NCBI GenBank assembly: GCA_963803915.1
Contig: CAWDOL010000015.1
Coordinates: forward strand, 140,013-204,012
Origin: Candidatus Aminicenantes bacterium
Lineage (GTDB): Bacteria; Acidobacteriota; Aminicenantia; Aminicenantales; UBA4085
Length of the DNA: 64,000 nt
Direction of reading: 5' to 3'
The position numbers and the translations under genes were made by a program. The stretch's first letter is position 1; each line of letters opens with the position of its first letter. The notes below the pieces were generated by a model. It searched no databases. It was not told where the DNA came from and saw only the letters and a list, made by a program, of their open reading frames with translations. This document shows positions 22,331-63,408 of this stretch, one piece after another.

Positions 22331-22561
22331 TCAGCTCTCGATCCCTTTGTCGTTCACGGCTTTGACGGTCACGACCAGGGATTCGCCCTTCCTGAACTGA
22401 AAGCCCGACAGAGCTGCCAGCGGTTCCTTGACCGTGACCGTCGCGGCGCCGGGAGAGGAACCGGGCCCATAGGTCGCGATATAAGAGACGATTTCCTTCG
22501 CCGGGCTCGGTGACCAGGCTGCTTCGGCCGTCCCCTTTTCGTATATTTCGCAAATTGACAT
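22331..22561 (-). pseudogene. Terminal fibronectin-type-III-like domain, 5'-truncated gene fragment
   Basis: ..AAWSPSPAKEIVSYIATYGPG..VTVKEPLAALSGFQFRKGESLVVTVKAVNDKGIES* fits an Fn3 pattern (W.P....I.SY.I.Y....L.G...G....V.V.AVN..G.S). The frame closes exactly where repeat DR1 and the low-GC island begin. Confidence 0.4.
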
Positions 22562-22599
22562 TGCCGAGCCGCCGGAAGTATATTCCCGGTGTGGTCAAA
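22552..22599 (+). promoter_or_regulatory. Promoter-like direct repeat DR1 (TTGACA-N18-TATATT)
   Basis: AAATTGACA..TATATTCCCGG.GTGG.CAAA matches 25198-25245 at 39 of 48 positions. TTGACA is at 22555-22560 and TATATT at 22579-22584. Weaker similarity continues to about 22625. Confidence 0.35.
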
Positions 22600-22639: not shown

Positions 22640-22761
22640 TGGAAAAAACAAATTCCTATATTCAATATTCACCCGGCTGGGGTGATGTTTACTGGATTGA
22701 TGCGAAAATAATTGAGGAATTAAGAATTTCCATCGGTTCCGCTCAGGAACCAGGAAGTTAA
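22640..22761 (+). pseudogene. C-terminal fragment of a third PD40-propeller paralog
   Basis: ..QYSPGWGDVYWIDAKIIEELRIS.. compares with ..EPGNGRSDIFWVDAKIIEELKITN* and ..SPGNGNGDIYWIDARVIEELRMKN* of the next two genes. No N-terminal part is present. Confidence 0.5.
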
Positions 22762-22790
22762 GAATTCAGAGTTAAAAGAGGATGTGATAA

Positions 22791-23795
22791 ATGAAGAAAT
22801 TCTTTATCATTTTAACAATATTTGTAAATATAAATTCTTTTGTGTCTGCACAGGATTTGCCCGCACTTAAAGGGCCATATCTTGGTCAGAAACCGGCCGG
22901 ATTAATGCCGGAAATTTTTGCTCCCGGAATATTATCAACTATAGCTCATGAACACAGCAGTCCTGAATTCTCACCCGATGGAAAGGAAGTGTACTATTCC
23001 GTAATATTTCCGGGTGTACAGACTGAAGTAATAATGTTTCGGAAAATAATTGATGGGCAATGGTCAGAACCTGAAGTCGCTCCGTTTTCCGGGCAGCACA
23101 GAGATGGAAGTCCTGTTTACTCTAAGGATGGTTTAAAATTATTTTTCTATTCAATGAGGCCTTATCCGGGGACTTTGGAACCGGAACAAATGGATTTATG
23201 GTTTGTAGAGAAAAAACAAAACAGTTGGGGGAAACCACAACATTTGGGTGATTTGATAAATTCAAACAAAAAAGAGATGATGTTATCGATTGCAAAAAAC
23301 GGGAATCTGTATTTTACCGTGATAGAAAAGGGGAACCACATTTTATATAAATCTGTATATGCAGATGGGAAATATACGGCGGCTCAGAGCCTCGGGAAAT
23401 TTATCGGAGAAAATTTTGCCGAATGGTGTCCATTTATTGCTCCTGATGAAAGTTATCTGATTTTTTCTGCATATGAACTAAAAGGGGATGAGAATAACGA
23501 CCTTTATATTGCTTTTAGGAATCCGGATGGAAGCTGGAAAAAACCGATTAATATGGGACCTTCAATTAATTCTGAATTTCAGGAACAATTCCCTAAGGTC
23601 AGCCCGGATGGGAAATATCTCTTCTTTACAAGCAACAGGTTCAGGGTAGAAAGGAAAATCAATGAGGAATTCTTTTACAAAATGCCTCTTACATATAAGA
23701 AAATACAGGAAATTATGAACGAACCCGGGAACGGCAGAAGCGATATATTTTGGGTAGATGCGAAGATAATAGAGGAATTAAAAATTACGAATTGA
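22791..23795 (+). CDS. PD40/TolB-like beta-propeller repeat protein, secreted
   Basis: 334 aa with a signal peptide. PD40-type motifs SPDGKEVYYS, SKDGLKLFFYS, APDESYLIFSA and SPDGKYLFFTSNR. AT-rich codon usage. Confidence 0.7.
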   Translation: MKKFFIILTIFVNINSFVSAQDLPALKGPYLGQKPAGLMPEIFAPGILSTIAHEHSSPEFSPDGKEVYYSVIFPGVQTEVIMFRKIIDGQWSEPEVAPFSGQHRDGSPVYSKDGLKLFFYSMRPYPGTLEPEQMDLWFVEKKQNSWGKPQHLGDLINSNKKEMMLSIAKNGNLYFTVIEKGNHILYKSVYADGKYTAAQSLGKFIGENFAEWCPFIAPDESYLIFSAYELKGDENNDLYIAFRNPDGSWKKPINMGPSINSEFQEQFPKVSPDGKYLFFTSNRFRVERKINEEFFYKMPLTYKKIQEIMNEPGNGRSDIFWVDAKIIEELKITN

Positions 23796-23919
23796 GAGTC
23801 AGGAGTTAAGAGTAATATTTCAATATATTATTTTTCGGTTTTGCGTGCAGTATTTCTTTTTACCATAAAATCACGGAGAAAGCAAAGATAATTTAGATCA
23901 AGAGTTAGAAGAATAAGGT

Positions 23920-24915
23920 ATGGAAATGAAGAATTTAATAATCTTATTATTCAGTTTTGTTAATATTGGCATTTTTGTTAATGCACAAAATATTCCAATC
24001 CTTAAAGGTCCATATCTTGGTCAGAAACCGCCCGGAATGATACCGGAAATATTTGCTCCGGGTATAATATCGACCGGATATTATGAAAGAAGTATTGTCT
24101 TTTCCCCTACACTTGATGAAATATTTTATCAGTTAAGAGGTTTGAGATTTACGACATTTATTCTTACTTCGAAAATACAGAATGGAATATGGAAGCAGCC
24201 GGAAGTTGCATTATTTTCCGGATATCCTGAATATTGTGATGATTGTCCGTTTTTTAATTATGAAGGGAATACTTTGCTTTTTGTATCAAAGAGACCAATC
24301 CCCGGTACTCAGGTGATTCAAAAAGAATCGGATATTTGGTTTCTCAGGAAAGACAGTAATGGATGGGGACAACCGGAATATTCAGGGAGTATCTTGAATT
24401 CCTCAGGTGATGATGATTATCCGACAGTTTCAAAAATGAACAATATTTATTTTTGTTCAAACAGAGACGGTAATTATGACATTTATGTATCTGAATATTC
24501 AGAATCTGGATATTCTAAACCCGTTCGAATTAATGCTCCCATAAGCACTGAAAAATTTGAAGGACACCCTTTTATTGCTGCCGATGAAAGCTATCTTATC
24601 TTTTCTTCTGACCGCCCGGGTGAACTTGGACAGGCTGATTTATATATCAGCTTTAGAAAGAAGGATAATTCCTGGTCGGAACCTATAAACATGGGAGATA
24701 AAATTAACACTCCTTTTCACGAGGCAGCCCCTTACGTATCTCCCGATGGGAAATATTTATTCTTTTGCAGTTTCCGCCCAAATTATGGAGAGTATTATAG
24801 TAAGAAGTTGGAATATAATGATATAAAAAAACACTTAAATAGTCCAGGAAATGGAAACGGAGATATTTATTGGATTGATGCAAGAGTAATTGAAGAATTA
24901 AGAATGAAAAATTGA
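23920..24915 (+). CDS. PD40/TolB-like beta-propeller repeat protein, secreted (paralog)
   Basis: 331 aa, collinear with the previous gene (ILKGPYLGQKPPGMIPEIFAPGI.., AADESYLIFSSDR, SPDGKYLFFCS). The start could also be the ATG at 23926. Confidence 0.7.
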   Translation: MEMKNLIILLFSFVNIGIFVNAQNIPILKGPYLGQKPPGMIPEIFAPGIISTGYYERSIVFSPTLDEIFYQLRGLRFTTFILTSKIQNGIWKQPEVALFSGYPEYCDDCPFFNYEGNTLLFVSKRPIPGTQVIQKESDIWFLRKDSNGWGQPEYSGSILNSSGDDDYPTVSKMNNIYFCSNRDGNYDIYVSEYSESGYSKPVRINAPISTEKFEGHPFIAADESYLIFSSDRPGELGQADLYISFRKKDNSWSEPINMGDKINTPFHEAAPYVSPDGKYLFFCSFRPNYGEYYSKKLEYNDIKKHLNSPGNGNGDIYWIDARVIEELRMKN

Positions 24916-24983
24916 GAATAAAAGGTAAAAGAATGAAAATGTATATTCATAACTTTATGATTATTAAGGGAGATAAGGTGTGG

Positions 24984-25077
24984 CGGGAGGATGTAGGAAT
25001 CGAACCTACCCGGCCCCTTCGTCAGAAGCCGTGCCGGATTAAAGAGTCCGGAGGGCCAGCAGGCCCCATGCCCTCCC
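24984..25077 (-). pseudogene. Pseudo-tRNA-Sec (degenerate full-length copy of selC)
   Basis: 94 nt, collinear with selC at 53199-53292. The anticodon loop is 8 nt (CTCTTTAA instead of CTTCAAA, plus-strand 25039-25046). The D-stem 3' strand has lost a base (GGCCC vs GGCCCC). Confidence 0.7.
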
Positions 25078-25197
25078 GTTGAATTGGCAGTCGGCTAAAA
25101 ACCGATCGTATTCTATCCGGCAGGATGCTCCAAGCTAAAAGGGGGAGCGAGGTCATCGGAGAGATGACGGAAAGGGGTGTGAAGAATTAGCTGGCTG

Positions 25198-25245
25198 AAA
25201 TTGACACCGTCGAGCGGCAGGGATTATATTCCCGGCGTGGCCAAA
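25198..25245 (+). promoter_or_regulatory. Promoter-like direct repeat DR2 (TTGACA-N17/18-TATATT)
   Basis: Copy of DR1. TTGACA is at 25201-25206 and TATATT at 25225-25230. Lies upstream of a gene relic and esterase copy 1. Confidence 0.35.
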
Positions 25246-25261
25246 GGGGCATCGGCGTGAT

Positions 25262-25387
25262 GGAGTCTCCGGTGTTCAGTCCGGCGGGCGTTCGCACGGG
25301 CACGTTCTATCCGTCTGGCGCAAGGAATCGGACGGGAAGTGGCGTATCGTGTTCGACTCGGGCTGCCCGCCCTGTCAGGGGCAGTAG
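25262..25387 (+). pseudogene. Possible relic of a DUF4440/SnoaL-like gene 3' end
   Basis: Translation ..GHVLSVWRKESDGKWRIVFDSGCPPCQGQ* resembles the typical C-terminus (..VW.K..DGKW.I..D) of NTF2-like DUF4440 proteins. No credible N-terminal part. Confidence 0.25.
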
Positions 25388-25423
25388 GCCGCGGCCCCCT
25401 TCCGGCTATTGTGAGCTTGCAAA

Positions 25424-27253
25424 ATGAAAGAAAAAACGAGTGTCTTCATTCCCACACGGAAAGAGGAATATGGAAAAAGACGAGTCCGTTTAATATCGGG
25501 TTTTCTCCTATCAGGGCTTCTGTTCGGATCGCTGCTCCAGGCCCAAGTCCGGCCGGCTCATGTTTTCGACCACAACATGGTGTTGCAGCGCGACAAACCG
25601 GTCAGAATCTGGGGCTGGGCGGCACCGGATGAGAAGGTAAAAGTCGAATTCGGAGGACAAGTTAAGTCAACGGTTGCCAACCCGCAGGGTGAATGGTGCG
25701 CCTGGCTGGATGCCATGAGCGCAAACGCTCAACCGTCGGATATGAGAATTTCAGGCCGGGCGAGCTCCGTGCGGTTCACAAATGTTCTGGTCGGAGATGT
25801 CTGGGTTCTGGGAGGTCAAAGCAATATGGAATTTGACCTGGCCCGGATCTTCCACGGTGACGCGGAAATTCTATCGGCCCATTTCCCATTGATTCGCCTG
25901 ATGACCGTACCCAGCTCGGCCGATCTGAAGCCCCAAAAAGACTTTGAACGCATCAATGAGTACGATAGCTGGCTCGACCGGTATGACAAAAAGGGATTCT
26001 GGTTTGTATGTTCGCCGGAAACGGTTCCCACGTTCTCGGGAATAGGCTATGTCTTCGGCAGGCGCCTCCATCTGGCCGCTCAAGTTCCCATCGGCTTAGT
26101 GGACGTATCATTGGGCGGCACCACCGTCGAGGCCTGGCTTTCTCCGCAGACGTTAAGCAAAATGCCCGAAAACAGCTCCTTGCTGAAGCAATGGAATGAA
26201 AAAGCGGCCCATTATGATCCGGATAAGGATCTCAAGGAAAAAATCAAGAACTGGGAGACTCGAAGCGCGGAGAGGCTAAAAAAGGGCCTGGAGACGGAGC
26301 CGAAACCCGTTGCGCCTTCTCCCCATCCCGCTTTTGACCGAAATTTCCCCGGTTCATCCTATACGGGGATGGTCTCCGTGATAGCCGGGCTGGCCATAAA
26401 AGGAGTCGTGTTTCATCAGGGATACAATAATGCGCTTGAAGATTCCCGTCCCAAGCAGTATGCCTCCAACTTCAAGGCGCTGATCAACGATTGGAGGGAA
26501 ACGTTCAAGGACGCGAATTTGCCCTTTGGCATCATCGAGTTCAGCGCCGGCGGTGAACCGCAAACGCTCGATAATTACGAGGTCAGGATGCTGGATCCGT
26601 CACCGTTTGTTCGGGAGGCACAGTTTAACGCCTTTCGGACTGTCCCCCTTACCGGATTTGTTTGCTCCTATGACCAGCAGGTCAACTGGTACCATCCCCA
26701 GAAAAAGATGGAAGCCGCCGAAAGGATGGCGCGTTGGGCTTTGTCGACGCAGTATGGTTTCAACCTTAAATGGGAGCCGGCCGTTTGCACTAATGTTGAA
26801 AGACGAAAAGATAAAATCATCATCACCTTCGATAAGGAGGTCAAGGCTTCCGATGACCGTCCTTTCGAAGGCTTCTCAACGGCGGGAAGCGATGGCCGTT
26901 TCTTTCCCGCCCAAGCGGCCTATGTGACGACAAAAAATGAAAAAGGGCAGCCGGTATTCGACAAGAAAAAGATCGAAGTGTGGACTAGCCTATGTGCCGA
27001 TCCGGTTGAGGTCCGTTATGCCTGGGCCCGAAATCCGTTGGGAAATCTGGTTAGCTTGGAGTGCCCGATCATTCCCGTGCCGCCGTTTCGAACCGATGAT
27101 TGGAGCTATCCCGAGGCTCCTTATCAAGCGGATGAGTACGCGGCTCATAGAATTCGAATGAAAGAAATGCGAAGGCAGGCGGAAGAGCTGGCACGGCTCA
27201 GGATCCTTCGGGAGGCCGAACAAAAATTGAACGAGAGAGAAGAATTGAAATGA
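25424..27253 (+). CDS. Sialate O-acetylesterase family (SASA/DUF303, SGNH-like), copy 1
   Basis: 609 aa with a signal peptide. Hallmark VGDVWVLGGQSNMEFDL, then GGTTVEAW and VVFHQGYNNA. Near-identical paralog at 57849-59654. Confidence 0.85.
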   Translation: MKEKTSVFIPTRKEEYGKRRVRLISGFLLSGLLFGSLLQAQVRPAHVFDHNMVLQRDKPVRIWGWAAPDEKVKVEFGGQVKSTVANPQGEWCAWLDAMSANAQPSDMRISGRASSVRFTNVLVGDVWVLGGQSNMEFDLARIFHGDAEILSAHFPLIRLMTVPSSADLKPQKDFERINEYDSWLDRYDKKGFWFVCSPETVPTFSGIGYVFGRRLHLAAQVPIGLVDVSLGGTTVEAWLSPQTLSKMPENSSLLKQWNEKAAHYDPDKDLKEKIKNWETRSAERLKKGLETEPKPVAPSPHPAFDRNFPGSSYTGMVSVIAGLAIKGVVFHQGYNNALEDSRPKQYASNFKALINDWRETFKDANLPFGIIEFSAGGEPQTLDNYEVRMLDPSPFVREAQFNAFRTVPLTGFVCSYDQQVNWYHPQKKMEAAERMARWALSTQYGFNLKWEPAVCTNVERRKDKIIITFDKEVKASDDRPFEGFSTAGSDGRFFPAQAAYVTTKNEKGQPVFDKKKIEVWTSLCADPVEVRYAWARNPLGNLVSLECPIIPVPPFRTDDWSYPEAPYQADEYAAHRIRMKEMRRQAEELARLRILREAEQKLNEREELK

Positions 27254-27282
27254 ACGCGTGAGCAACGACGTTCGTCTCTCGT

Positions 27283-30153
27283 TCATAGGATGTTATCCAG
27301 CGTCTCCCAATTGAGCGAGTGAGCTGGCTCAAAGCGCTCCGAGCCGGCGTAGCGCAGCAGGCTGTGCATCAGCTGGCGCGCCTCGGGATGGTCCTGAAGC
27401 GCCGGCAGGTCGCTGGCGCAGACCAGCAGCTTGCCCCGGCCGACTTTGGCCTCGAAGAGCAGGCCCAGCTTGTGATTGCGGGCGAAGTTGTCGATGACAT
27501 GAATGATCGGGCGATAATCCGCCGGGGTTTCGTCCAAGATGATCGGCCGCGAGTTCTTGACGATGGGCCACCACTGCCAGTTGCTGTGAAACTCCGTCGG
27601 AAACTCCGCCAGCGCGGGATGGCTCGGATCGCAGAGGAACCCCTGCGTACCCGGCGCCGGCTCGATGTTTTGCGCCAGGGCGGCTTTCGCGAACATGGGC
27701 CAGCACCAAAAGTCGGTGGCAAACGCGCCGCCCACGGTGTGCTTGGGATCGTTCGTCCGGGAAAACAACAGGACCTTTCCGCCCTCGGATAGGAATGTCC
27801 GCGTCGTCGCGTCGAGGCGATTCGTCACCAGAACTTCCTTGAGCGTGCTGGTATCAACCTTGGGCGGAAAGACCCAGAGGTCATAGCTGTTGCGGCAATC
27901 TGTTCCCTCGATGGCGATGGTCAGCTTGACCTGGCGCGGGGCCTTGACCCGGTTCAGCGCAGCTTGTATCGGCCCGACGGAACCAAGCCCTCCCTCCTTG
28001 ATCGTCAGCGGTCCCAGCGCTCCCTCCGCGATCGGCGAGCCTTCGCCATCGCGGAGGGTCCAGTTCACACGGGCTTCGTGGAGGTCGGCCGGGCCATAGT
28101 GGGCAACCCTGACCTCGCCGGTGAAGGTTTCGTCCGTGGTCCAGGCGTATTTCTCCAGCAAGAGGAGCGGCACGGTTTCGCTGCAAAACTCCCGCCATTT
28201 GTCCGGCCTGGTGATTCCCTTCGACTCCATGAACACGTTCAGCATCCCCACCAGCGCCGTTCCCTGCCCGGGGAAATCCATCAAGTCCAGCCAGTGAAAA
28301 CCGCTTAATCCGGGCGTGCGCAACGCGGCCTCGAGGTCCTCGCGCTGGCAGATGGCGGCCAAGGCGCCGGAGGCCCGCAGGAAGTCGTGGGAGAGATCCA
28401 GCATGCCGGCGTCCCGCAGGCGCTGCTGAAAGATCTCCAGGTTCCGCGCCTTGAGCACGCCCGTGTATTTCGGGATCTCGCGAAAGTCCGGGGCCATCGC
28501 GAATTCGGCGATTTCGTGGCTGATGACCGGCACCGGCACGTCCTGGATCGATTCGTCGTAATTCACCAGGGACGAAGGCGGACGGCTGTCGATGTGGCCG
28601 CCTTGGGGGAAATCGCCGGCGAAGAACGCGCCGCGCACGGGCAGGTTCTTTCCGGTCTTGCCCGTCACCCAGAAATCGTCGCCTTCCGCGTAGCTCGGAT
28701 CCCAATGGTTGTTGTTCGCCCCTTGGGCGTAGAGTCGGCGCGGATCGCGCTTTTGAAAGCGGGCCACCAGCTCGAACATGGCCGGCTTGCGCTCGAGCTC
28801 GTTGCCGAGCGTGAATAGGACGAAGGACGGGTGATTGCCGAAATGCCGGAAGATCAATTCGGCCTCGCGCAGCGCGTAGTCGTACAGCGAGGCGTTGGGG
28901 TCGGCGCCCGGCACGTCAAGATAGTCGATGTTCCGCTTGGCCGCCTCCGTGCTCTCGGGCGCCTGGAACGCGCTGCGCTTGTTGGGCAGCTCGACCTGGA
29001 AATACATCCCCAGCTCATCCGCCGCCGCGAAGGCGGCCTCGGGGGGGCACCAGGAATGAAAGCGGACGTGGTTGAGCCCCCAATCCTTGAGAATCCCCAA
29101 AACCCGCAGCCAGCCGGCCTTGTCCATGGGCGGATAGCCGGTCAGTGGATAGTTGGCGCAGTCCAGCCGCCCGCGCAGAAAGATCGTCCGCCCGTTGATC
29201 GCAAGCCGCTGCCTGTCCCGCTTGAAATCGCGCAGCCCGAAGCGGACGGCGCGTTGATCGGTAAAGGACTGCCCGCCGGCGACGGCGGACAACCGCAATT
29301 CCAGCCCCAGCATGGCCGGCTGAAACTCATCCCACAGCGGCGCCGCTTCGCCCGGCTGATAGATGAACTCGACCCTGTTGCGCGCTTCCGGCGCCTGCAC
29401 GACGATGGATTGTGCGGCGAAGTCCGCCGGCCTGACGACATTGGCGCTCCGGCATTGCAGCGCCAGCTCTCCGGTCGCCGGCTGCCCCGTCACATTCCCC
29501 ACCACCACCCGGACGCGCGCCTGCTTGCCGGCCGCGTCGGGATAGACCTGCACGTCCTCGATCCAGACCGGGTCCGTGGCGCGGAGCTCGAGCCGGCCGA
29601 TGATGCCGTTCCAATTGGTCTGGGTCCGCTCGTCCACCGCGTGGGAGGGCCCGACCGGCGGCAGCTTGGCGTTGTCCACCAGCACGGTTATCGTGTGGCG
29701 ACCGAGCCTGAGAGCGCGCGTAAGGTCAAAAACCTGCGGGGCGCTGAGCGTGTCGTCGGCGCCGCAATCCCCGTCATCCACCCATACCCGCGTGCTCTTG
29801 GTGCGCTCCAGCAGCAGGGTGATCCGCTTGCCTTGCCAAGCCTCGGGAATGACCACCTCGCGCTGATACCAGGCGGGGCCTTTCCAGTACCAGACGCGGG
29901 AGAGGCGATCTTCAGCCCGCTCGTCCTTGAGCTCCCCCTTGTGATTGGTGTCGGTCGTGCCGGGCAGGGTCACCGAGTCATCCAGCTTCTCGGCGAACCA
30001 CCTCATCGCGACGCCGGTGTTGTGCGGATCCAGACGGAATTGCCAGGCGCCGGCCAGGGGAATGGTGTTCGCCGGGGGAAGAGCCGCTGGGCCGTGGGCG
30101 GCTGCCAAGCTCAGGTACGCGATGGACACAAGCCAGGCCGTTATCTTGGGCAT
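27283..30153 (-). CDS. Glycoside hydrolase family 2-like enzyme (sugar-binding + TIM-barrel), secreted
   Basis: The ATG at 30153 gives signal peptide MPKITAWLVSIAYLSLAAAHG. Motifs: WYWKGPAWYQREVVIPEAWQGKRITLLLERTKSTRVWVDD and LNHVRFHSWCPPEAAFAAADELGMYFQVELPN. The 100 codons upstream in the ORF track look non-coding. Confidence 0.75.
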   Translation of the reverse strand: MPKITAWLVSIAYLSLAAAHGPAALPPANTIPLAGAWQFRLDPHNTGVAMRWFAEKLDDSVTLPGTTDTNHKGELKDERAEDRLSRVWYWKGPAWYQREVVIPEAWQGKRITLLLERTKSTRVWVDDGDCGADDTLSAPQVFDLTRALRLGRHTITVLVDNAKLPPVGPSHAVDERTQTNWNGIIGRLELRATDPVWIEDVQVYPDAAGKQARVRVVVGNVTGQPATGELALQCRSANVVRPADFAAQSIVVQAPEARNRVEFIYQPGEAAPLWDEFQPAMLGLELRLSAVAGGQSFTDQRAVRFGLRDFKRDRQRLAINGRTIFLRGRLDCANYPLTGYPPMDKAGWLRVLGILKDWGLNHVRFHSWCPPEAAFAAADELGMYFQVELPNKRSAFQAPESTEAAKRNIDYLDVPGADPNASLYDYALREAELIFRHFGNHPSFVLFTLGNELERKPAMFELVARFQKRDPRRLYAQGANNNHWDPSYAEGDDFWVTGKTGKNLPVRGAFFAGDFPQGGHIDSRPPSSLVNYDESIQDVPVPVISHEIAEFAMAPDFREIPKYTGVLKARNLEIFQQRLRDAGMLDLSHDFLRASGALAAICQREDLEAALRTPGLSGFHWLDLMDFPGQGTALVGMLNVFMESKGITRPDKWREFCSETVPLLLLEKYAWTTDETFTGEVRVAHYGPADLHEARVNWTLRDGEGSPIAEGALGPLTIKEGGLGSVGPIQAALNRVKAPRQVKLTIAIEGTDCRNSYDLWVFPPKVDTSTLKEVLVTNRLDATTRTFLSEGGKVLLFSRTNDPKHTVGGAFATDFWCWPMFAKAALAQNIEPAPGTQGFLCDPSHPALAEFPTEFHSNWQWWPIVKNSRPIILDETPADYRPIIHVIDNFARNHKLGLLFEAKVGRGKLLVCASDLPALQDHPEARQLMHSLLRYAGSERFEPAHSLNWETLDNIL

Positions 30154-30298
30154 CGTCTTGGATCTTCCGTGTGCTTCGGAGCTTTCATCGGCTAAGCCTC
30201 CCTGCAGAGAGATTCTGCCAGAAAACTCACATGGTGTCTGTATCCGTTTTGCGGGATAAGGTCCGCGTCTGTTTATCCGGATGTTCGAGTTCGCCCGC

Positions 30299-30327
30299 TT
30301 GACTTCCATCCACCGCTCCCATAAATT
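30299..30327 (+). promoter_or_regulatory. Sigma70-like promoter candidate for the 30367 gene
   Basis: TTGACT (30299-30304), a 17-nt spacer, then TAAATT (30322-30327), about 40 nt upstream of the ATG. Confidence 0.35.
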
Positions 30328-30366
30328 GAAAAGGCTCGCCATTGCGAAGAGAAGAGGGATCGGATC

Positions 30367-31593
30367 ATGAAGGTAGACAAGCTTTTCTCGGCCCTTCTCT
30401 CGGCCGGCCTTGCCGCGCTGCTCGTTCTTTCCCTTTCTCCAGGCCTGAACGGACAATCCGGGAGCGACGCCTCACGGCTGCTCGGCAAATGGTCCGGACG
30501 AACGGAGTTCGGCCAGCTCGTCCTTGAGTTCCGTTCCGCCACCCAGCTCGTCTTCGAGGGCGACGTCGTGAGCTATAAGCTGCTCCCCGGAATCATCCGC
30601 ATTGAGGATGAGGACGGAACGACTGATTATCGCTACGCCTTCCGCGGCGACACGCTCGTCGTATCCTTCCCGGAGGGTATCCAGGTTGAGTTCACCAGAC
30701 TCGGTGCCCCTCCGAAACCCCTGCCTGCCCCGCTCGCGGGAACAAAGCCCGGCCGGTCTGAGCCGACGCCGTCGGCCGCAGGTAGGGGAGCGGAAATCGG
30801 CGCCCCGGGCATCGCCTCCTCGCCGCAGATCGGGGCCGGAGAAGCAGGGGATGCCGGATGGGGATTCAAGTTCCAGCCGCCTGCCGGCTGGAAGTTCCAG
30901 AGCTCGCCAGAAGGCATCTTCCTGGGCCACGACACGGTTGCCGGGATGATCCTCGTCCTCCCTCACACGGCCGCGAACATCCAAGCCGTCCGGGAGCAGA
31001 TGATGCTGGGGCTCCACGAAGAGGGCCTGGACCTCACGCCGGCCGGGGGCTTGCGCCCTGCGGGGGCATCGGCCCTGGCCGGGGACTATGAAGGCGTCGT
31101 CCAGGGCGGGCAGGCCAAAGCCCTCGGTCTCGGGACTCTATCGCCGTTCGGCGGCGGCGCTTTCATTGTCGCGCTGACCACACCCGAGAAGTTTGGCCGG
31201 GAGCTGCCCGCGGCAGCCGAGACAATCGCCCGAAACATGAGGTACTTTCGCGTCGAAGCCTCCGAGGTCATGAGCCACTTCGCCGGCACTTGGGTTACGA
31301 TGACCAAAAGCACGGAGACGCGCTTCACCCTGACGCCCGCGGGTGAGTTCTACTCCGGCTACGAAGCGAGCTATTCAGGACGGTTCGACGATGGCGGCGC
31401 GTGGGGGACGGCAAGCAACAGCAGCGATCGCGGGCGCTGGACCGTTCGCGGCGACAAGCGGCAGGGCCAGATCATCCTCACCTATTCGAACGGCCGTCAA
31501 GTTCAGATTCCGTACAGAGTCCAAGTCGAGAGGGGGGAGACATTCTGGAACGAGTACTGGTTCAACGGAGATCTTTATGGAAGACGGCGATGA
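30367..31593 (+). CDS. Hypothetical secreted protein
   Basis: 408-aa ORF with a signal peptide (LSAGLAALLVLSLSPGLNG) and coding-like composition. No family motif recognised. Confidence 0.5.
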   Translation: MKVDKLFSALLSAGLAALLVLSLSPGLNGQSGSDASRLLGKWSGRTEFGQLVLEFRSATQLVFEGDVVSYKLLPGIIRIEDEDGTTDYRYAFRGDTLVVSFPEGIQVEFTRLGAPPKPLPAPLAGTKPGRSEPTPSAAGRGAEIGAPGIASSPQIGAGEAGDAGWGFKFQPPAGWKFQSSPEGIFLGHDTVAGMILVLPHTAANIQAVREQMMLGLHEEGLDLTPAGGLRPAGASALAGDYEGVVQGGQAKALGLGTLSPFGGGAFIVALTTPEKFGRELPAAAETIARNMRYFRVEASEVMSHFAGTWVTMTKSTETRFTLTPAGEFYSGYEASYSGRFDDGGAWGTASNSSDRGRWTVRGDKRQGQIILTYSNGRQVQIPYRVQVERGETFWNEYWFNGDLYGRRR

Positions 31594-31645: not shown

Positions 31646-32154
31646 ATGCCGAGACGCCGTCCCGCCCCGTCTCTCGTCGCCGCCCAGGCCGTCAAGGTCC
31701 AGTTTGGCCTCGATGCCAACGCCACGGCGAGGGCCTTGCGGGCCGAGGGCTACTTGGGCGGGATGATCGCCACGGGGGTGTCGTCGTGGCCCTGGCCCAG
31801 CATTACCGGCCGGACCCGGACGGCGTCGTCAACGCCCTGAAGGCCGCCGGCTATTCCCTTGACGAATTCGGCTCGCCTCTCATCCAAGCCTTCGGCCTGG
31901 CCTTGAACGACTTTGCCGCTCTCATGAAGCGGACCCTTTACTCCGTGGGCGCGATGGTCCGCGTCATGGTCCAACGGATGAGCAAGCCGATCGACGCGGC
32001 CGCGGCGCTTGTCGTCGGATACGCGCTCAGGACCGCGCGCGAGGTGACCGCCGCCCTCAAAGAAGGCGGCTACCAGCGGACGGCCCTCGGTGCGGTCTTC
32101 GGCCTGACGTTTGTCCGGATCGGCCAGCTCCTGGCGTCGCTGGGCATCGGGTGA
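31646..32154 (+). pseudogene. Hypothetical helical-repeat protein, frame broken in a G-run at 31774-31778
   Basis: A recurring unit appears in two frames: ARALRAEGY (31343 ORF frame), then NALKAAGYSLDEF and TAALKEGGYQRTAL (31606 ORF frame). Start is uncertain (31577 or 31646). Confidence 0.3.
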
Positions 32155-32200
32155 GGGACCCGTCACTGGCCCGGCGCTACGGACCTTCGAGTTAAGGCCA

Positions 32201-33951
32201 TCAGCCGCGGCGGGTCTTCTTTTTCCCCATCCGCATCAGCAGCCCCATGGCGACCAGGGCCAGGGCCACGGCGAAGTCGATGCGGAAGGCGGGTGCATCC
32301 TTGTAGAGTGTCAGGACGAGCAGCGAGACGGCCGCGACCAGCGCCCCGAAGGCCGCCAGCATGAACCCGATGACCCCGAAGGGCGAAAGGGCATCGCTCT
32401 TGGCGCCCTCGAAAAGGAAGGGCGTCTTCAGATCGGCGAAGAAAGCCGCGACCCGTTGCTTCTCGCCCTCCGGCGTCGGGCGCGAGGCCGTCCCGATGAC
32501 CATCCCGAGGATCGTGGCCGTGACGCTCACGACCGTGGCCGCGGAGTTCCAGCCGCTGCGGAGCCAGAACTCGAGCCTCGGGTCGGCTTTCATCGCCTCG
32601 GCGTAGACCTGGACCAGGATAGAAGTTCGTCAGGACCAGGAGCACGCCCGTGACGCAGCCCGCCGTCAGCCCCCACAGCGTCCCCCGCGCGTTGAACTTT
32701 CTTGAACAGCAGGCCGAAGATCAGCGGAATCATGGTGGCCGGCCCGAAGGCGCTGAAGACGCGGAACATGATGTCCATCAGGTTGAAGCCCTGCAGGGCG
32801 TTGAACAGCATGGCCAGCAGCACCGTGACCGTCCCGATCAGCACCGTGAAGGCGCGGCCGGTGAAGATTTCCTGCTTCTCGGTCAGTCCGGGCTTGATCT
32901 TCCTCTTGAAGAAGTCGCGGGTCAGGACGCCGGACAGGGTGTTGAACTCCGAGCCCAGGGTGGACATCGTCGAGCTGATGACCGAGGCCAGGATCAGGCC
33001 CATCATCCCGACCGGCAGGATCTTCAGGCTGATCAGGGCGTAGACTTCCTTGGCGTTGGCGATCCCGGGCAGCAGCACCCGGGCCGCGATGCCCGGCAGG
33101 AAGAAGATCGGCGGCATGACGAACATCAGGCCGGCGATCAGGGCGATCATCTTGCCGATCTCCTTCTCGCTCTTCAGGGTGTTGTACTTCTGGACCAGGG
33201 CCCAGCTGGCGTTGTAGGAGAGGACGGTGACCAGGAAGACGGTGAAGACGAGGTAGGACCAGCCGTAGGGCTCCGGGGCCGGGTTGAAGAAGCCGGCCGG
33301 CAGCGCCCGGGCGAAATCCCCCAGGTTGCCGATCCTGCCCAGGGTCAGGATGAAGAGGGTGATGACCGAAACGGCCAGGATGGAGACGTTGACGAAGTCG
33401 GTGATCATGACCGTCATCTGGCCGCCCATGAACGAATACAGGATCATGACCAGCCCGATGATGGCCATGAAGGCGGTGATCGAGAGCCCCAGCCCGCGCA
33501 GGGCCACGGCGAAGATGATCGAGGTCGAGAGGATCTTCAGGGCGTTGTCGAACATGCGCAGCGGCAGGCCGGTCCAGACGAAGACCTGGTGGACGATCGG
33601 GCTGTAGCGGCGCTCCATGAAGCCGAGCGGGGTCATGACCCGGGCCCGCCGCCAGCGGCGGGCCGTGAGCAGCCCGCCCAGCACGATGCAGAGCGGGCTG
33701 ATCCACAGGATGACGACGGCCACGATGCCGTACTTGTAGGCGATCTCGTTGTAGATGACGAAGAGCAGGGCGCTGAACGAGGCCTTGTAGAACGACGTCC
33801 CGGCCAGCCACCAGGGCATGACGTTGCCGGCCGCGAAGTAGTCCTTGGCTTTCCGGATGTAGCGGGCCGAGGCCAGGCCGACGCCGACGACGACGATGAA
33901 ATAGGAGAGGATGACCAGGTAGTCGGGAAGCCGGATGCCCTGGTCGTCCAT
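32201..33951 (-). pseudogene. Sodium:solute symporter (SSS) family transporter, two frame breaks near the 3' end
   Basis: Start MDDQGIRLPDYLVILSYFIVVVGVGL.. with about 13 TM segments. The frame shifts at about 32697 (AAG-AAA-G-TTC) and about 32617 (TTC-TAT-C-CTG). Joining the three frames gives ..LFKKFNARGTLWGLTAGCVTGVLLVLTNFYLVQVYAEAMKADPRLEFW.. Confidence 0.8.
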
Positions 33952-35248
33952 CACAGCTCCGAGAGGACGCCGTCCAGAATCGGCCACCGAGGCGTCGATC
34001 TGCTCCGGCGTGATGACCAGGGGCGGGGCCACCCGCATGACGTTGCCGTGCAGGCCGAGCTTGCCGCACATCAGGCCCCTGCTCCACGCACTCGAGGACG
34101 ATTGCCTTGGCCAGGTCCGTGGCCGGCTCCTTGGTCTCGCGGTCGAGCACGAACTCGATTCCGTACACGAGCCCCATGCCCCGGACGTCGCCGATCACCG
34201 GGTGCTTAGCCATCAGGTCGAGAAGCTTTCCCTTGAGATAGGCGCCGTTGCGGACGGCCTTCTCCAGGAGGCCCTCCTTCTCGATGATCTCGAGGACGGC
34301 CAGCGAGCCGGCGCAGCTCAGCGGGTTCCCGCCCAGGGTCGAGGACATCTCGCCCCGCTCGAGGCAGGCGAAGACTCTCGGCCCGGGTCAGGAGGGCCGC
34401 AATGGGCGCGCCGCTGCCGATCCCCTTGCCGAGGACGAGGATGTCGGGAGCGAGGGATTCGTGCTCCAGGGCCCACATCGTCCCGGTGCGGCCGAAGGAG
34501 GACTGGACCTCGTCCAGGATGAAGAGCAGACCCCGGCTTTTGGCCCAGGCCTCGAGCTTCTTGAGGCAGCCCGGGGGAGGGAAGACGAATCCGGCCGTGC
34601 CCTGGTAGGGCTCGACGATGACGGCGGCCAGGGAGCCGGAGGATTGGACCTCGACGGTCTGGTCGAGGAAAGTCAGGCAGAAACAGATCGCATTCCGGAT
34701 GGGTTTTGCCGAAGGGACAGCGATAGCAATACGGGTAGGGAGCCAGGATCGTGCCCGGGACAAGCGGCCCGTAGCTGCGGCGGATCTTGGGGATGCCGCT
34801 CAGGCTCATGGGGCCGAAGGTCCGGCCGTGGAAGCCGCCCCAGAAGGAGACGATCTCGTACTTGTCGGTGAATCGTTTGGCCAGGCGCATGGCCGCGTCC
34901 ATGGCCTCGGAGCCGGTGGTCAGGAAGATGACCTTGTCCAGGTGCGGCGGCGCGGCCCGCACGATCTTCTCGGCCAGTCGCAGCCGCTCCGGGGTCGGAA
35001 AGTCGAAGGTGTTGAGGAGTCTCGCGGCCTGGCTCGGCCAGGGCTTCGGCCAGGACGGGATGGGCGTGGCCGACGTTGGCCACCAGCACGCCCGAGGTCC
35101 AGTCGATGTAGTGCTTCCCGTCGACGTCCCAGATCTCGGCTCCCGAGGCGTGATCCCAGACGACCGGCGCCTGCCAGTTCATGCATTCGGGCTCGTAGGT
35201 CCGGGACTTTTCCAGGAGCTCTTGGGTTTTCGGCCGGGAGTTTGTCAT
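33951..35248 (-). pseudogene. Class III (omega-type) aminotransferase, at least five frame breaks
   Basis: Segments lie in alternating frames: DGKHYIDWTSGVLVANVGHAHP / LLNTFDFPTPERLRLAEKIV..TTGSEAMDAAMRLAK / AAVIVEPYQGTAGFVFPP..ILDEVQSSFGRTG / MSSTLGGNPLSCA / GNVMRVAPPLVIT / ILDGVLSEL*. Breaks are at about 35031, 34682, 34376, 34076 and 33981. The stop overlaps the SSS start (TGATG). Confidence 0.8.
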
Positions 35249-35382
35249 GGTCGGCTCCTTGCTTCCGTTGAGTGTCTGCCCTTATTTTCTCCGCGCCCGG
35301 CCGCGTGTCAAGCGACCCCGACGGGACGCCCGATGCGGCAACCCTGGCCGTGATGGGCGCAGAGTGCTAGAATCAGCCCATC

Positions 35383-36612
35383 ATGGATGAGAGGGTTCTT
35401 CGGGCCGTCGACGACAATCTCGAGGGGGCGCTGGAAATCCTGCGCGGGCTGATCGAGATCCCGTCCACGAGGGGCGAAGAGAAGGGCCCGGCCCGATTCC
35501 TCCAGCCGCGCCTGGCAGGCCTGGCCGATTCGGCCGAGCTCGTCCCCGTCCCCGATTCCATCCGGGACGACCCCGACTATTCCTTCCCGCTCGACGGCTT
35601 CCGCTACACGGGCGAGGCCAATCTGCGGGCTGCATCAAGGGGAACGGAGCGGGCCGCAGCCTGGCTCTCAATACCCACTTGGACGTCGTGCCCGCGACAC
35701 CCGGACAGGTCGAGCCCTTCAAGGCGCGGATCGAAAACGGCTGGGTCCACGGCCGCGGGGCCTGCGATGCCAAGGGGCAGGCGGCCGTCATCTGGCTCGT
35801 CCTCAAGTCCCTGGCCGATCTGGGCCTGCGCCCCGGGGGAGACCTGACCGCGGATTTCGTCGTCGAGGAAGAGTGCGGCGGCAACGGGACGCTCCTGGTG
35901 CAGCGAAACGGCCTGGCTGCCGACGGCGCGATCGTCCTCGAGCCTACCGGCCTCGACGTCGTCCATCTTGTGCGCGGGGCCGTTTGGTTCGAAGTGCGGA
36001 CGTCGGGTGTGGCCGGCCACAGCGGCAGCCCCGGCACGACCGTCAGCGCCCTGAAAGAGGCCGTCGAGGTCATGCGGGCCATCGAGGCTCTCAGGGAGGA
36101 GACGCTGGCCGTGTCGCGGCAAGCCGTACCCGAGATCGCGGACCACCCCAACCCGGCGCCCTGCACTTTCGGCATGCTCCATTCGGGCGTCTGGCCGGCC
36201 GCCGCGCCGGACGAGGCCGTCCTCAAGGGCGTGTTCGGGTTTCTGCCTCCCTTCCAGCCGGCGGCAAATCCAGACTCGCCTGGCGGAAGCCGTGCGCCCC
36301 TTCCGGGCGGAAGTCCGGTTTACGATGCTGCGCAACGATCCGTCCAGCGTCCCCCCGGCGCATCCCTTGCCGCAGACCCTGCTTGCGGCCTGCCGCGAGG
36401 CCGGTCTCGCGGCCCGGCCGGCCTTCATGAACGCCTCGTGCGACGCCTGGCGATACACGGAAGGGCTGGGCATTCCGGCCGTCGTCTTCGGTGCCGGCTC
36501 CATCGGGACGGCGCACGGCCGGGACGAGCGGGTGGCTGTCGACGATCTCAGAAAGGCGGCCTCCGCCATCATCCGATTCATCGATCAATGGAGCGGGCTC
36601 GAACATGTCTGA
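35383..36612 (+). pseudogene. Peptidase M20 (ArgE/DapE/deacylase-like), two frame breaks
   Basis: LNTHLDVVPA, GRGACDAKG and VVEEECGGNG. The C-terminal part ..NASCDAWRYTEGLGIPAVVFGAGSIGTAHGRDERV.. is in a third frame. Breaks are at about 35631 (-1) and about 36263 (+1). Confidence 0.8.
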
Positions 36613-37663: not shown

Positions 37664-37692
37664 ACGGGGAGCGGCCCAGGAAGGAGAAAGCC

Positions 37693-38722
37693 ATGACTCA
37701 TGAGTTCGGCATCATCGGGGCGGGGATCATGGGCGGCGCCGTCGGCCGGGTCCTCAAGAACATACCCAGTGTGAAGATCCGGGCCATCTGCGATCCGGAC
37801 ATCGAGCGGCGCGAAGCGCTGGGCCAGGAGCTGGGCGTTGCGGCCCTCTACGCGAACCACAAAGACATGCTGGACAAGGAGAAGCTCGATGCGGTGGCCG
37901 TGGCCACGCCGGACCATTTTCATCGCCGGCCCGTCGTCGACGCCCTGCAGGCCGGCTGCCATGTCTATGTCGAAAAGCCGATGGCGACCTCGCAGGCCGA
38001 CGCCGAGGAGATGTTCCGGGTGGTGAAGACAACCGGCAAAAAGCTCCAGGTCGACTTCAACCACCGCTGGCTCTCGCCCTACCACAAGGTCCGCGAGATG
38101 ATCACGGCCGGCAAGATCGGCGAGCCGCTCATCGGCTTCGCCCGCAAGAACAACCCGATCTTCGGTACCGACCCAGATGATCAAGTCCTGGTCGGCCAAG
38201 TCCACCCCGGCCTGGTTCCTGTCCTGCCACGACATCGACCTGATGACCTGGTGGTTCGACGCCGATCCGGTCGAGGCCTATGCCCGCGGGACCAAGAAGG
38301 TCCTGGCCGGGATGGGCTTCGATACCTACGACGGCATCCAGTCGCTGGTGACCTATGAGGGCGGCAAGCACGCCACCTACGAAGCCGTCTGGATCTACCC
38401 GAATTCGAGCCCCTACATGCCCGACTCGTTCATGGAGATCATCGGCAGTGCCGGCTCCCTGCACCTGGACCGCAAAGCCGAAGCGATCGACGCCCTGCTC
38501 CCGGAGAAGTTCGATTGCCCCAGGACTTTCCTCAATTATAAGGTCTTCGATGAATGGCAGGGTGCCTTCCCGGCCGCGGTGCGGGGCTTCGTCTATGCCA
38601 TCGAGCACGACACGGAGCCCCATGTCGGCGCCCGCGACGGCGTCCGGAGCACGGCCGTCCTGGACGCCATCCATCGCTCGCTCGCGTCCGGGAAGCCCGA
38701 GACAATCAGCCTGAACGTCTGA
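37693..38722 (+). pseudogene. Gfo/Idh/MocA family oxidoreductase, one frame break near 38165
   Basis: RBS AAGGAG then ATG at 37693. Motifs FGIIGAGIMGG and VYVEKPMA. After ..ARKNNPIF the sequence continues in the 38177 ORF frame (VPTQMIKSWSAKSTPAWFLSCHDIDLM..). Confidence 0.8.
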
Positions 38723-38749
38723 CCGGCCCTCGTACGACGGAGTCATGCC

Positions 38750-53092: not shown

Positions 53093-53198
53093 CGACGGAT
53101 ATGTGTTTAGACGTGGGCGAGAGGCTTTAAGTTGCGCCGGGCCGGAAAAGAACCAGATGTCTGGGGAGGGATTTGCCGGCGTTTCGGGAAAGGTGGAG

Positions 53199-53292
53199 CG
53201 GGAGGATGTAGGAATCGAACCTACCCGGCCCCTTCGTCAGAAGCCGCGCCGGATTTGAAGTCCGGAGGGGCCACCAGGCCCCGTGCCCTCCC
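53199..53292 (-). tRNA. selC: tRNA-Sec (anticodon UCA)
   Basis: Reverse complement: GGGAGGGC-AC-GGGGCC-TGGT-GGCCCC-T-CCGGA-CTTCAAA-TCCGG-(24-nt variable arm)-GTAGG-TTCGATT-CCTAC-ATCCTCCC-G. It has a long acceptor stem, a 6-bp D-stem with a 4-nt loop, a long extra arm and discriminator G. CCA is not encoded. Confidence 0.85.
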
Positions 53293-53356
53293 GTGGGACA
53301 AGGGATGGTATTTGGTCAGGGAACCGAAGTCAAGAAGGCTGGATCTTAAGGTGCGT

Positions 53357-57692: not shown

Positions 57693-57725
57693 TTTGAAGT
57701 CTGGAGGGGCCACCGGGCCCCGTGC
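57693..57725 (-). pseudogene. Fragment of selC (anticodon loop to D-arm only)
   Basis: TTTGAAGTCTGGAGGGGCCACCGGGCCCCGTGC compares with TTTGAAGTCCGGAGGGGCCACCAGGCCCCGTGC at 53254-53286. The acceptor, variable and T arms are absent. Confidence 0.6.
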
Positions 57726-61481: not shown

Positions 61482-63408
61482 TTATTTAAGGACGTGGGCG
61501 TCGCCGCTGCGGCGGGTCAGCTGCGTTTTATCCAGGTATTCCAGGACGGCGCAGGCGTACTTGCGCGAGACCTTGAGCACGTCCTTGGCCTCGGCGATGG
61601 TGATCGAGCGGCGCAGCTTGAGGAACTGGAGCACGGCCGTCTTGGCCTTCTCCAGGGCTTCCTTATGCATCGTGACCTTGGGATCGATGCGCACGAGAAC
61701 GCCCTGCTGGGCCAGCGTGCCCATGATCTTGCGGAATTGGTTGAGGGGCAGGCGCAGCTCCTTGACCACGTCGTCCTCGAGGGGCGGCTCGAAGGCGGCC
61801 CGCTTGAAGATCGCCTCGACCTTGCGGGCCAGGTCCTGATCCTTGTCGACCAGCTTGGCTTGGTGGCCGGGCAGGTTGACGCCTCCCTCGAGGCGGACGA
61901 TGGCCTGGGCGGAGGCGAGGGCGTCTAGGCCTTGGCGCAGCACCGCGTCGCCCGTCTCCCGCCCAAGGGTCGAGGCCAGGTCGGCCGAGGGCATGAACGG
62001 CTTATGGGGATTGTCGGTCAGGTACTTCTTGATCGAAGCGTAGGCCTTGTCTCGCAACGCAGCGAATGCCTCGGCGGGCATATATCGATCGTCCTTCTCG
62101 CCTTTGATCCTGACCAGGCGGCCGGAGGGGATGAGGCCGTCCACGGCGGCGCGGATGATGGCGGTCGTCTTCCCCAGAGCGAGCGAGACGTCTTCGATGG
62201 CGAGCGCCTTGGCCGGATCCTTGCGGAAGAACTGATCGACGGCCTCGGGGAAGGCTCCCTCGAACTTGCGGATTCCGGCCAACGCCGCCTCGTCGAATCT
62301 CTTATGGCGCGCCGGTGAGACGTCGAGCACCTCGCCGCCGCCGATCGTGTTGAGGGGCGAGAACGTGCGGATGATGAAGCGGTCGCCGAAGAGGGCGGTC
62401 GTGGGCGCTTCCAGGACGAACTGGGCCAGCATGGTCTCGCCCGGCAGCATCTTCTCCTTCTCCAGGAGCACGACCCGGGCGATCGTCTCGTCCGTGCCGA
62501 CGTGGAAGCGGACGCGGTCGCGGGTTTTAAGCTCGATGTCCGCGTTCTGGAGCAAGCGCAGGCGGGCGTCGAGCCTCTGCGTCGGCTTCGAAGAACCCGG
62601 GCCGGGCGGCGCATTGGCCGCGCCGCAAGGCGTCCTTCTCTACGTCGTGGATGTTGAGGGCGGTGCGGCGGCCGAGTCCCGAGGCTTCCTGCTTGGACTT
62701 GTGGACCTGGACGCCGCGGATCCGGGTTTCGATCCTCTCGGGCAGGATCTCGATCTTGTCGCCGACTTTCACTTCGCCCGACAGCACCGTCCCGGCGATG
62801 ACCGTGCCGAAGCCGTGCTTGACGAAGACGCGGTCGATAGGCATACGGAAGTAGCCGCAGTCGTCGCGCCTGTCCACGCGCCGGCCGGCCGCCTTCAGCG
62901 CCTCGACCAGGGCGGGCAGGCCCGCTCCCGTATGGGCCGAGACGGGCATGATGGGCGCCTGTTCGAGGAAGGTGCCGGCGACAAAGCCGCGCACCTCGGC
63001 CGTCAGGGCTTCGATGCGCTCCTCGTCCACGAGGTCGGATTTGGACAGGACGATGATGCCCTCGCGCACCGAGAGCAGCCTCAGGATGTCGAAGTGCTCG
63101 CGAGTCTGGACGGAGATGCCCTCGTCGGCGGCGATGACGAACAGCACGGCGTCCACGTTGGAGGCGCCGGCGACCATGGTCTTGACGAACTTCTCGTGGC
63201 CGGGGACATCGATGAAGACGATCTGCTTCTCGTAGTCGGGCAGATCGAGAAAGACGAACCCGAGCTCGATGGTCATGCCCCGCTCTTTCTCCTCGGGCAG
63301 GGTGTCGGGGTCGGTGCCGGTCAGGGCTTTGACCAGGGCGGATTTGCCGTGATCGATGTGGCCGGCGGTGCCGACGATGACGTGGGGCTTTTCGCTCATC
63401 GGGGTCAT
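61482..63408 (-). pseudogene. selB: Selenocysteine-specific elongation factor SelB, one frame break near 62586
   Basis: GTPase motifs GTAGHIDHGKS, DVPGHEKF and SKSD. After ..RGQCAARPGFFE the protein continues in another frame (PTQRLDARLRLLQNADIELKTRDRVRFHVGT..) through the winged-helix C-terminal domains. There is one extra nt (GAA-G-CCG). Confidence 0.85.

Follow-up and report, generated by a model that had tools for sequence, protein, structure and literature searches.

Islands that reside in tRNA or tmRNA genes are described by the Islander scheme, in which the target gene is regenerated, a tDNA fragment is displaced and an anticodon-centred 'A' site may serve for the crossover (Hudson, Lau and Williams 2015, PMC4383910). 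Williams 2002 is cited there as well. The anticodon-centred site is the target of many tyrosine integrases, and next to 3760 islands with a 3' fragment a rarer kind with a 5' fragment is known, counted as 159 islands (PMC4383910). A pseudogene of an allo-tRNA(UAU) from Edaphobacter C40 was found associated with a transposon-related open reading frame (ORF) (Mukai et al. 2017, PMC5389517), and the yeast mitochondrial tRNA-Thr(UAG) is a working tRNA with an eight-nucleotide anticodon loop (PMC7609411).

Here, we describe a tRNA-Sec-like gene copy, designated copy A, on contig C15 of a Candidatus Aminicenantes bacterium. The window, i.e. the whole stretch of DNA that was analysed, comprises 64,000 nucleotides of a metagenome-assembled genome of 30 contigs and 4.2 Mb, rated 76% complete. 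By its SelB relatives, the contig belongs to Candidatus Aminicenantes in the phylum Acidobacteriota. A previous sequence-only reading had interpreted this locus as a decayed full-length duplicate of the intact selC gene, copied together with neighbouring DNA at the border of a low-GC island. For comparison, selC-like sequences were gathered from 60 relatives and from the complete set of 27 family genomes.

Structure of copy A

The tRNA-like features of the two full-length loci in the window are:

24981..25077, minus strand: copy A, pseudo-tRNA-Sec (ARAGORN, RF01852 with 47.4 bits, minimum free energy fold)
25039..25046, minus strand: eight-nucleotide anticodon loop CUCUUUAA of copy A, replacing the CTTCAAA that all 10 distinct intact selC genes share
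25052..25061, minus strand: D-arm lesions of copy A (G19 to C, one C missing, linker gone), from alignment and fold
24983..25031, minus strand: 3' block of copy A with variable arm, T arm, acceptor 3' strand and discriminator, identical to the resident selC
53198..53292, minus strand: resident intact selC (UCA) without encoded CCA (ARAGORN tRNA-Sec(UCA); RF01852 with 75.0 bits)
53305..53333, minus strand: sigma-70-like promoter TTGACT-17-TACCAT, 12 nt upstream of the resident selC (promoter scan)

Copy A reads GGGAGGGCAUGGGGCCUGCUGGCCCUCCGGACUCUUUAAUCCGGCACGGCUUCUGACGAAGGGGCCGGGUAGGUUCGAUUCCUACAUCCUCCCGCCA in tRNA sense. The earlier description of a 94-nt sequence at 24984-25077 holds for the locus and is amended here: the gene lies on the minus strand and spans 97 nt, because it includes an encoded CCA (24981-24983). 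Its proposed collinearity with the intact selC over the full tRNA length was corroborated by a BLAST alignment covering the whole tRNA (~93% identity, E = 9e-33). ARAGORN recognised the resident gene as tRNA-Sec(UCA), whereas copy A was returned as a tRNA with no assignable identity (tRNA-???) and the four-base anticodon 'cttt'. Its score of 47.4 bits with the Rfam covariance model RF01852 is barely above the gathering score of 47, compared to 75.0 bits for the resident selC. The minimum free energies of both cloverleafs, calculated with RNAfold, are -49.9 and -51.8 kcal/mol, respectively.

From tRNA position 47 to the discriminator copy A equals the resident selC, and the acceptor 5' strand is identical too. 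Its stems comprise an acceptor stem of 7 bp plus a C.A pair, a 5-bp T stem and the long variable arm. Copy A thereby retains the 13-bp acceptor/T branch (8/5), the long variable arm and the discriminator G73 of a functional selC, whereas the UCA anticodon in a seven-nucleotide loop is not present. Instead of CUUCAAA, the anticodon loop reads CUCUUUAA (25039-25046; plus strand TTAAAGAG), which confirms the earlier claim of an eight-nucleotide loop and a lost UCA anticodon; at least one insertion and two substitutions are required to derive this loop from CUUCAAA.

Two further lesions are located in the D arm. The D loop is UGCU rather than UGGU, with G19 replaced by C at 25059; in tRNAs, G19 pairs with C56 at the elbow (textbook; PMC7609411). 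In addition, the CCCC run on the 3' side of the D stem is one C short (GGCCC-U). The sequence-only reading had correctly noticed the missing base but placed the defect in the stem itself. In the RNAfold model, the 6-bp D stem survives as G11 would pair with the former linker U (G.U); the D stem then abuts the anticodon stem, and it is the spacer separating both stems that has disappeared. Hence, a 6-bp D stem with a four-nucleotide D loop carrying G18 and G19 and a following linker does not occur in copy A. The G19-to-C change and the encoded CCA were not part of the earlier description.

Copy A also differs from the resident selC by U10 for C, A46 for G and the encoded CCA in place of CUC. 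U10, A46 and CCA represent the family consensus, and it is the resident selC which is derived there (C10, G46, no CCA); in total, copy A holds the consensus at four positions where the resident selC diverged. The 3' end of the resident gene reads GCUCCACC (53198-53200, 53195-53197), compared to the CCA-encoding GCCACACC in copy A and most relatives. Aligned with the family consensus, copy A is identical from A38 of the loop (25040) to the CCA, and all five events by which it departs from the consensus fall within the first 39 of 97 nt (p ~0.01 if evenly spread, by our own arithmetic).

Constraint on intact selC genes

Within this order, the 10 intact selC genes with distinct sequences align gap-free. 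When they were placed on the Sec cloverleaf, 97.5% of the cells were paired and nine pairs showed compensatory changes, which indicates that intact selC genes are under structural selection. G18, G19, U20, linker column 27 and the loop CTTCAAA are invariant among these 10 sequences, and the three lesions of copy A (loop, G19 and linker) all affect such invariant positions. The 14 intact copies (13 in relatives and the resident selC) reached Rfam scores of 71-77 bits, and four other decayed full-length copies in the family scored 66.8, 63.7, 61.8 and 50.1 bits; copy A has the lowest score among the 19 full-length copies. These results support the earlier classification of copy A as a decayed tRNA-Sec derivative lacking UCA.

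The loop variant CUCUUUAA gave no match in an exact-pattern scan of genome and metagenome contig collections and was absent among the 60 relatives. Upstream of copy A, the promoter scan revealed no promoter at its threshold; by eye, a weaker TTAGCT-17-TAGAAT element is located at 25110-25138, 32 nt upstream. One intact selC, equipped with a good promoter, is retained in the genome. Judging from its lesions, copy A has lost UGA decoding and is very probably inactive, and we consider it likely to be a non-functional, redundant selC paralogue.

Assembly quality

Single-base errors are frequent in parts of this assembly. In comparison with the same-genus genome G002, the segment from 32.2 to 40.8 kb contains 13 single-base insertions and three deletions (16 in 8.6 kb) in non-repetitive contexts. 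Over the wider stretch from 31774 to 42207 of the window, single-base indels are numerous, and most of them insert an arbitrary base. A single extra base near 62586 disrupts selB, and selA and selD contain one break each (contig C15 208327-210662, some 4.3-6.7 kb past the right edge of the window). A tricorn protease gene appears split (50297-53092 and 49902-50495), and in other parts of the genome the signature motifs of rpoB and gyrA are located in open frames of just 371 and 230 amino acids. As essential genes are broken as well, we attribute these indels to consensus errors and not to gene decay; the apparently broken selB, selA and selD genes thus provide no evidence for a loss of selenocysteine use. 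The completeness estimate of 76% may itself be lowered by the indel errors.

Copy A could then be a second intact selC, or a variant with a seven-nucleotide loop, into which the consensus of a poorly polished long-read assembly has introduced errors, as suggested by the insertions and deletions relative to G002, the split sel genes and the short rpoB and gyrA frames. We regard this explanation as very unlikely. In the 7.6 kb around copy A (22791-30456), which contain four unbroken ORFs of 334, 331, 609 and 1057 amino acids, no single-base assembly errors were seen. Moreover, the loop requires an insertion plus two substitutions and the change of G19 to C is a substitution, whereas errors elsewhere are almost all single insertions, and removal of any single base from CTCTTTAA fails to restore CTTCAAA.

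Decoding potential of copy A

The variable arm, the acceptor stem and G73 are serine-identity elements, and all three are intact in copy A. Together with the predicted stable cloverleaf, the retained U33 and the purines 3' of the anticodon, they would be compatible with a functional variant tRNA: a quadruplet decoder (CUUU reading AAAG, or GAAG with G.U wobble), a reader of lysine codons, or a decoy or regulatory RNA acting on SerRS, SelA or SelB. tRNAs with eight-nucleotide loops work elsewhere, as in yeast mitochondria (tRNA-Thr; PMC7609411). A tRNA-Lys(CUU) was not found in this 76%-complete genome, and the extra base in selB creates the reading TTC TTC GAAG CCG, in which GAAG could pair with CUUU if G.U wobble is allowed. 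Nevertheless, a working variant of this kind seems extremely unlikely, because G19 and the linker between D stem and anticodon stem are lost, no strong promoter is present and the variant is not conserved in any genome or metagenome searched. A quadruplet decoder would be expected to combine the eight-nucleotide loop with a sound body, conservation, expression and cognate sites; here, the loop is present on a damaged body and in a variant that no other searched genome or metagenome contains. The other extra bases of the assembly also speak against such decoding, as they occur in heterogeneous contexts and are accompanied by deletions and by broken essential genes. Finally, the tRNA-Sec body is a poor substrate for EF-Tu, and decoding would need SelB and a SECIS element.

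Programmed quadruplet decoding at the +1 frame breaks was considered separately and rejected: the breaks lie in heterogeneous contexts and share no motif, deletions occur as well, and rpoB and gyrA are broken. We therefore regard the frame breaks as errors and not as programmed sites.

Flanks of copy A and the low-GC island

The DNA adjoining the 3' end of copy A comprises two features:

24905..24980, minus strand: AT-rich 3' flank of 'E type' (CCAcaccttatctcccttaataatcataaagttatgaat...TTTTCATTC...), closest to the flank of genome G015
22640..24975, plus strand: low-GC island of 2.3 kb with 35% GC compared to about 62%, abutting the 3' end of copy A

AT-rich DNA begins right at the 3' end of copy A, which bears out the claim that the locus borders a low-GC island. 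The island holds two paralogous PD40 beta-propeller genes (22791-23795 and 23920-24915). The flank of copy A agrees with E-type flanks at 28-30 of the first 45 nt, but with the flank type next to the resident selC at only 0-9 of 45; downstream of the resident gene, the 3' flank matches that of the selC of G007, a genome of the same genus. On a larger scale, one side of the surroundings of the resident selC is conserved in G002 and the other side in G001.

E-type flanks adjoin selC copies in about six genera, and in several relatives the DNA downstream of them is lower in GC than the upstream side, as at copy A. In relatives, the flank contains four ~10-nt TTTCCGYC repeats and shows no stable fold. 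At loci L013, L014, L018, L029 and L037, about 110 nt downstream of selC are conserved, starting with CCAccccatataacccaagaaaatcagag... and followed by the four TTTCCGYC repeats. The appearance of this conserved module suggests a series of binding sites for a protein, which might be iterons or the arm sites of an integrase. A structured RNA was discarded as an explanation, since the consensus energy is only -1.4 kcal/mol and Rfam detects tRNA-Sec alone in these loci. An E-flanked fragment in G003 (contig C6) has Prim-Pol and AAA_25 genes as neighbours.

An independent Logan contig (ERR12035938), retrieved by an exact-protein look-up with the second PD40 protein, carries Metallophos, a 76-amino-acid ORF and both PD40 genes in this order and ends ~27 nt inside copy A, a stop that is expected at a repeat. 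The corresponding exact-protein look-up with the esterase and the two small ORFs overlapping copy A returned no record of an independent contig. At the left edge of the island, neither a displaced selC fragment nor a D flank was detected, as Smith-Waterman scores were no better than those of controls. PD40 homologues were uninformative as a tracer of the island's origin: with 23 matches in this genome, they form a large family of native paralogues.

Direct repeats at 22552-22599 and 25198-25245, identical at 37 of 48 positions, bracket the island together with copy A. We do not take them for an insertion signature: the ~55-nt promoter-like motif of which they are two occurrences is also present at seven other loci in relatives. 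This motif resembles a near-consensus promoter, AAATTGACA-N17/18-TATATTCCCGG.GTGG.CAAA, and is found twice in the window and at seven more loci (G007, G026 and G018). By its distribution it is a dispersed, lineage-specific motif with a putative promoter or regulatory role and not a target-site duplication.

A third selC piece and the esterase duplication

Three further features bear on the question whether the tRNA was copied with its neighbours:

57693..57725, minus strand: third selC piece, a 5' fragment (tRNA positions 7-38) with D arm, 5' strand of the anticodon stem and the whole CUUCAAA loop
25424..27253, plus strand: SASA-type esterase copy 1, 92% identical over 1843 nt to copy 2 (57848-59690)
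61482..63396, minus strand: selB, the ancestral upstream neighbour of selC in the family, split by one extra base near 62586

The ancestral order in the family is selB directly followed by selC, with a distance of only 13 nt in G003. The 5' fragment at 57693-57725 terminates exactly at the end of the CUUCAAA loop, and the junction after the loop (57652-57692; (G/T)ACGCCCCCGC...) is shared with G007. In that genome, selB and the 5' fragment are 80 nt apart, with the fragment on the downstream side, and no match to the esterase block of the window was obtained in the 16 kb compared. The fragment represents an insertion that entered selC long ago from its 5' side. In the present genome, an S9-peptidase gene and esterase copy 2 are now located between selB and this fragment.

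The esterase ORF starts 347 nt from the 5' end of copy A. The duplication, which comprises esterase and GH2 sequence, extends over 25447-27289 and 57848-59690 with 92% identity and adjoins the 5' fragment at its second block. Each esterase copy thus has a selC-derived piece on its divergent 5' side (24981-25077 next to 25424; 57693-57725 next to 57873), an arrangement which, together with the high identity of the esterase genes, would suit a plain segmental duplication in which selC, esterase and GH2 were copied as one block and one tRNA decayed afterwards. The boundaries of homology argue otherwise. According to a self-BLAST of the window, the similarity of the two full selC loci is confined to 24975-25079 and 53190-53294 and hence stops at the tRNA borders. 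The spacers between tRNA piece and esterase (369 nt and 122 nt) share no similarity (local alignment score 15 compared to a shuffle mean of 16). Copy A further possesses consensus bases and a CCA that are absent from the resident gene. Since the fragment junction exists in G007, behind selB, with no match to the esterase block in the 16 kb compared, the tRNA was not duplicated together with that block. We therefore consider a segmental duplication unlikely, and the earlier proposal that the tRNA was duplicated along with neighbouring DNA could not be upheld. The esterase duplication is, as far as homology boundaries indicate, a separate event which did not include the tRNA.

Esterase copy 1 is followed by a GH2 gene, of which two short remnants were observed behind esterase copy 2 (59690-59818, similar to 27631-27662 and 29338-29440). 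These remnants identify the second block as a copy of esterase and GH2 with large deletions.

selC as a recombination site in the family

Copy numbers in related genomes revealed that selC is affected far beyond this window: selC matches were obtained in 18 of the 27 family genomes, and 11 contained several pieces. In relatives, 3' fragments begin at positions 22-38, typically at ...cttca/AATCC (the slash marks the breakpoint), and 5' fragments end at positions 38-41. The breakpoints thus cluster in the anticodon stem-loop. G015 contains two 5' fragments between selB and the full copy. Integrase genes are located ~140 nt from a full copy in G014 (contig C38) and ~1 kb from a fragment in G002 (contig C110). 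The notion of selC as an island-integration hotspot can thus be extended to this lineage on the basis of the multiple pieces and the integrases beside selC in G014 and G002.

G014 carries three full selC copies. One of them (L037, G014:C26:7203-7299) has a UAA anticodon (loop CUUAAAA) and a UGAU D loop in which G19 is lost; a 3' fragment lies 2.3 kb away (L152, 4855-7299), and the main ORF in between is a 507-amino-acid sigma-70 (RpoD-like) gene. A second copy (L012, G014:C203:1449-1545) is chimeric: its anticodon stem combines a 5' strand of the CCGGA type with a 3' strand of the TCCAG type, resulting in a C.A mismatch at a pair that covaries perfectly in intact selC genes. This chimera is direct evidence that two selC lineages have recombined within the anticodon stem-loop. 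Judged by these sequence pieces, selC is repeatedly broken and rebuilt within its anticodon stem-loop in this family.

Origin of copy A

The consensus bases, the E-type flank and the position of the lesions 5' of position 38 make copy A look like a recombination junction or a displaced older copy. The sequence-only reading of a decayed duplicate as opposed to an att-type fragment is therefore only partly retained: copy A is full-length and decayed, but all lesions lie 5' of position 38, where att-type 3' fragments begin, and neither its flank nor its consensus bases are those of the resident gene. We propose that copy A was most probably left behind by site-specific recombination in the anticodon stem-loop of selC, and that it is neither a duplicate of the resident gene nor a working tRNA.

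In the suggested mechanism, elements with tyrosine integrases would use the anticodon-centred site of selC, some of them entering from the 5' side, and would carry tRNA-like attachment sequences, so that every integration would leave a second selC copy or fragment. Copy A would be such a junction copy, in which a pristine 3' block from A38 to CCA is followed by the element-type flank and the low-GC island. Its 5' part may derive from the attachment site of the element, which would never have been under tRNA selection. Alternatively, the 5' part may have decayed once a second functional selC made copy A redundant; in that case, recombination would have kept the 3' block like that of the resident gene. 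The integrase would since have been lost and the region rearranged.

A search for integrases (PF00589) on contig C15 gave no match; as a second island boundary is missing too, the element model is circumstantial at copy A. The 28 kb between the two full copies comprise ordinary metabolic genes which are chromosomal in the relative G002, and the two full copies therefore do not delimit one island. The sole full selC of G007 occupies the place of copy A, beside the Metallophos orthologue; the island is absent there, but the 3' flank differs from that of copy A and corresponds to the resident selC. Such contradictory synteny implies that several rearrangements occurred; comparison with G001, G002, G003 and G007 indeed revealed numerous rearrangements on short contigs.

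More far-reaching models were considered as well. Copy A might be transcribed and serylated and act as an expanded-loop decoder or decoy or, in a milder version, a family of selC-specific elements in Aminicenantes might possess complete pseudo-tRNA-Sec attachment sites, integrate from the 5' or the 3' side of the anticodon loop and employ the conserved ~110-nt flank with its four TTTCCGYC repeats as an arm; these models appear extremely improbable. Most likely, copy A is an ordinary scar of mobile-element recombination and not a new kind of tRNA.

For annotation, this means that tRNA finders and Rfam will call copy A a second tRNA-Sec or a tRNA with a four-base anticodon, while pseudogene or recombination scar is the proper label. 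selC is a busy recombination site in uncultured Aminicenantes, as it is in Enterobacteria, and its full-length, 5' and 3' pieces can be used as markers of island boundaries and genome rearrangements.

Comparison with known systems

tRNAs with eight-nucleotide anticodon loops are known as frameshift suppressors of the sufD/sufB type. Copy A resembles these and the yeast mitochondrial tRNA-Thr(UAG) in its eight-nucleotide loop and the retained U33. Such tRNAs are otherwise intact, expressed and of demonstrated function, unlike copy A, and the candidate target sites for copy A look like assembly errors. Natural tRNA-Sec species with anticodons other than UCA were reportedly described by Mukai and co-workers in Angew Chem in 2016; they are said to have seven-nucleotide loops, intact bodies and matching recoded selenoprotein genes. 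A Sec body with a changed anticodon is common to them and copy A, and the relative G014 also has a full-length copy with UAA. Copy A is distinguished from them by its eight-nucleotide loop, the D-arm lesions and the lack of conservation.

The allo-tRNA pseudogene of Edaphobacter C40 comes from the same phylum in the broad sense and shares with copy A a disrupted Sec-related body, mobile DNA nearby and the assessment as inactive in translation. Unlike allo-tRNAs of the 8/4 or 9/3 type, copy A derives from the local 8/5-type selC; damage is confined to its loops and linker, while most of the stem structure is preserved.

Islands of the Islander scheme differ from the present locus in that the repeat here is a full-length tRNA-like copy, the contig carries no integrase, no second boundary was found and the interval between the full copies, in which a tyrosine integrase would be expected, contains mostly ordinary chromosomal genes. 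The similarities are nevertheless extensive. The tRNA repeats have one orientation, both being located on the minus strand 28.2 kb apart; a block of identity extends from the anticodon loop to the 3' end (A38 to CCA), in agreement with breaks at positions 22-41 in relatives; and low-GC DNA adjoins the 3' end. In addition, selC fragments of the 3' and the 5' kind occur among the Aminicenantes relatives; they break within the anticodon stem-loop, and integrases are found next to them. Copy A is therefore best read as a new example of a well-known kind of tRNA-gene scar.
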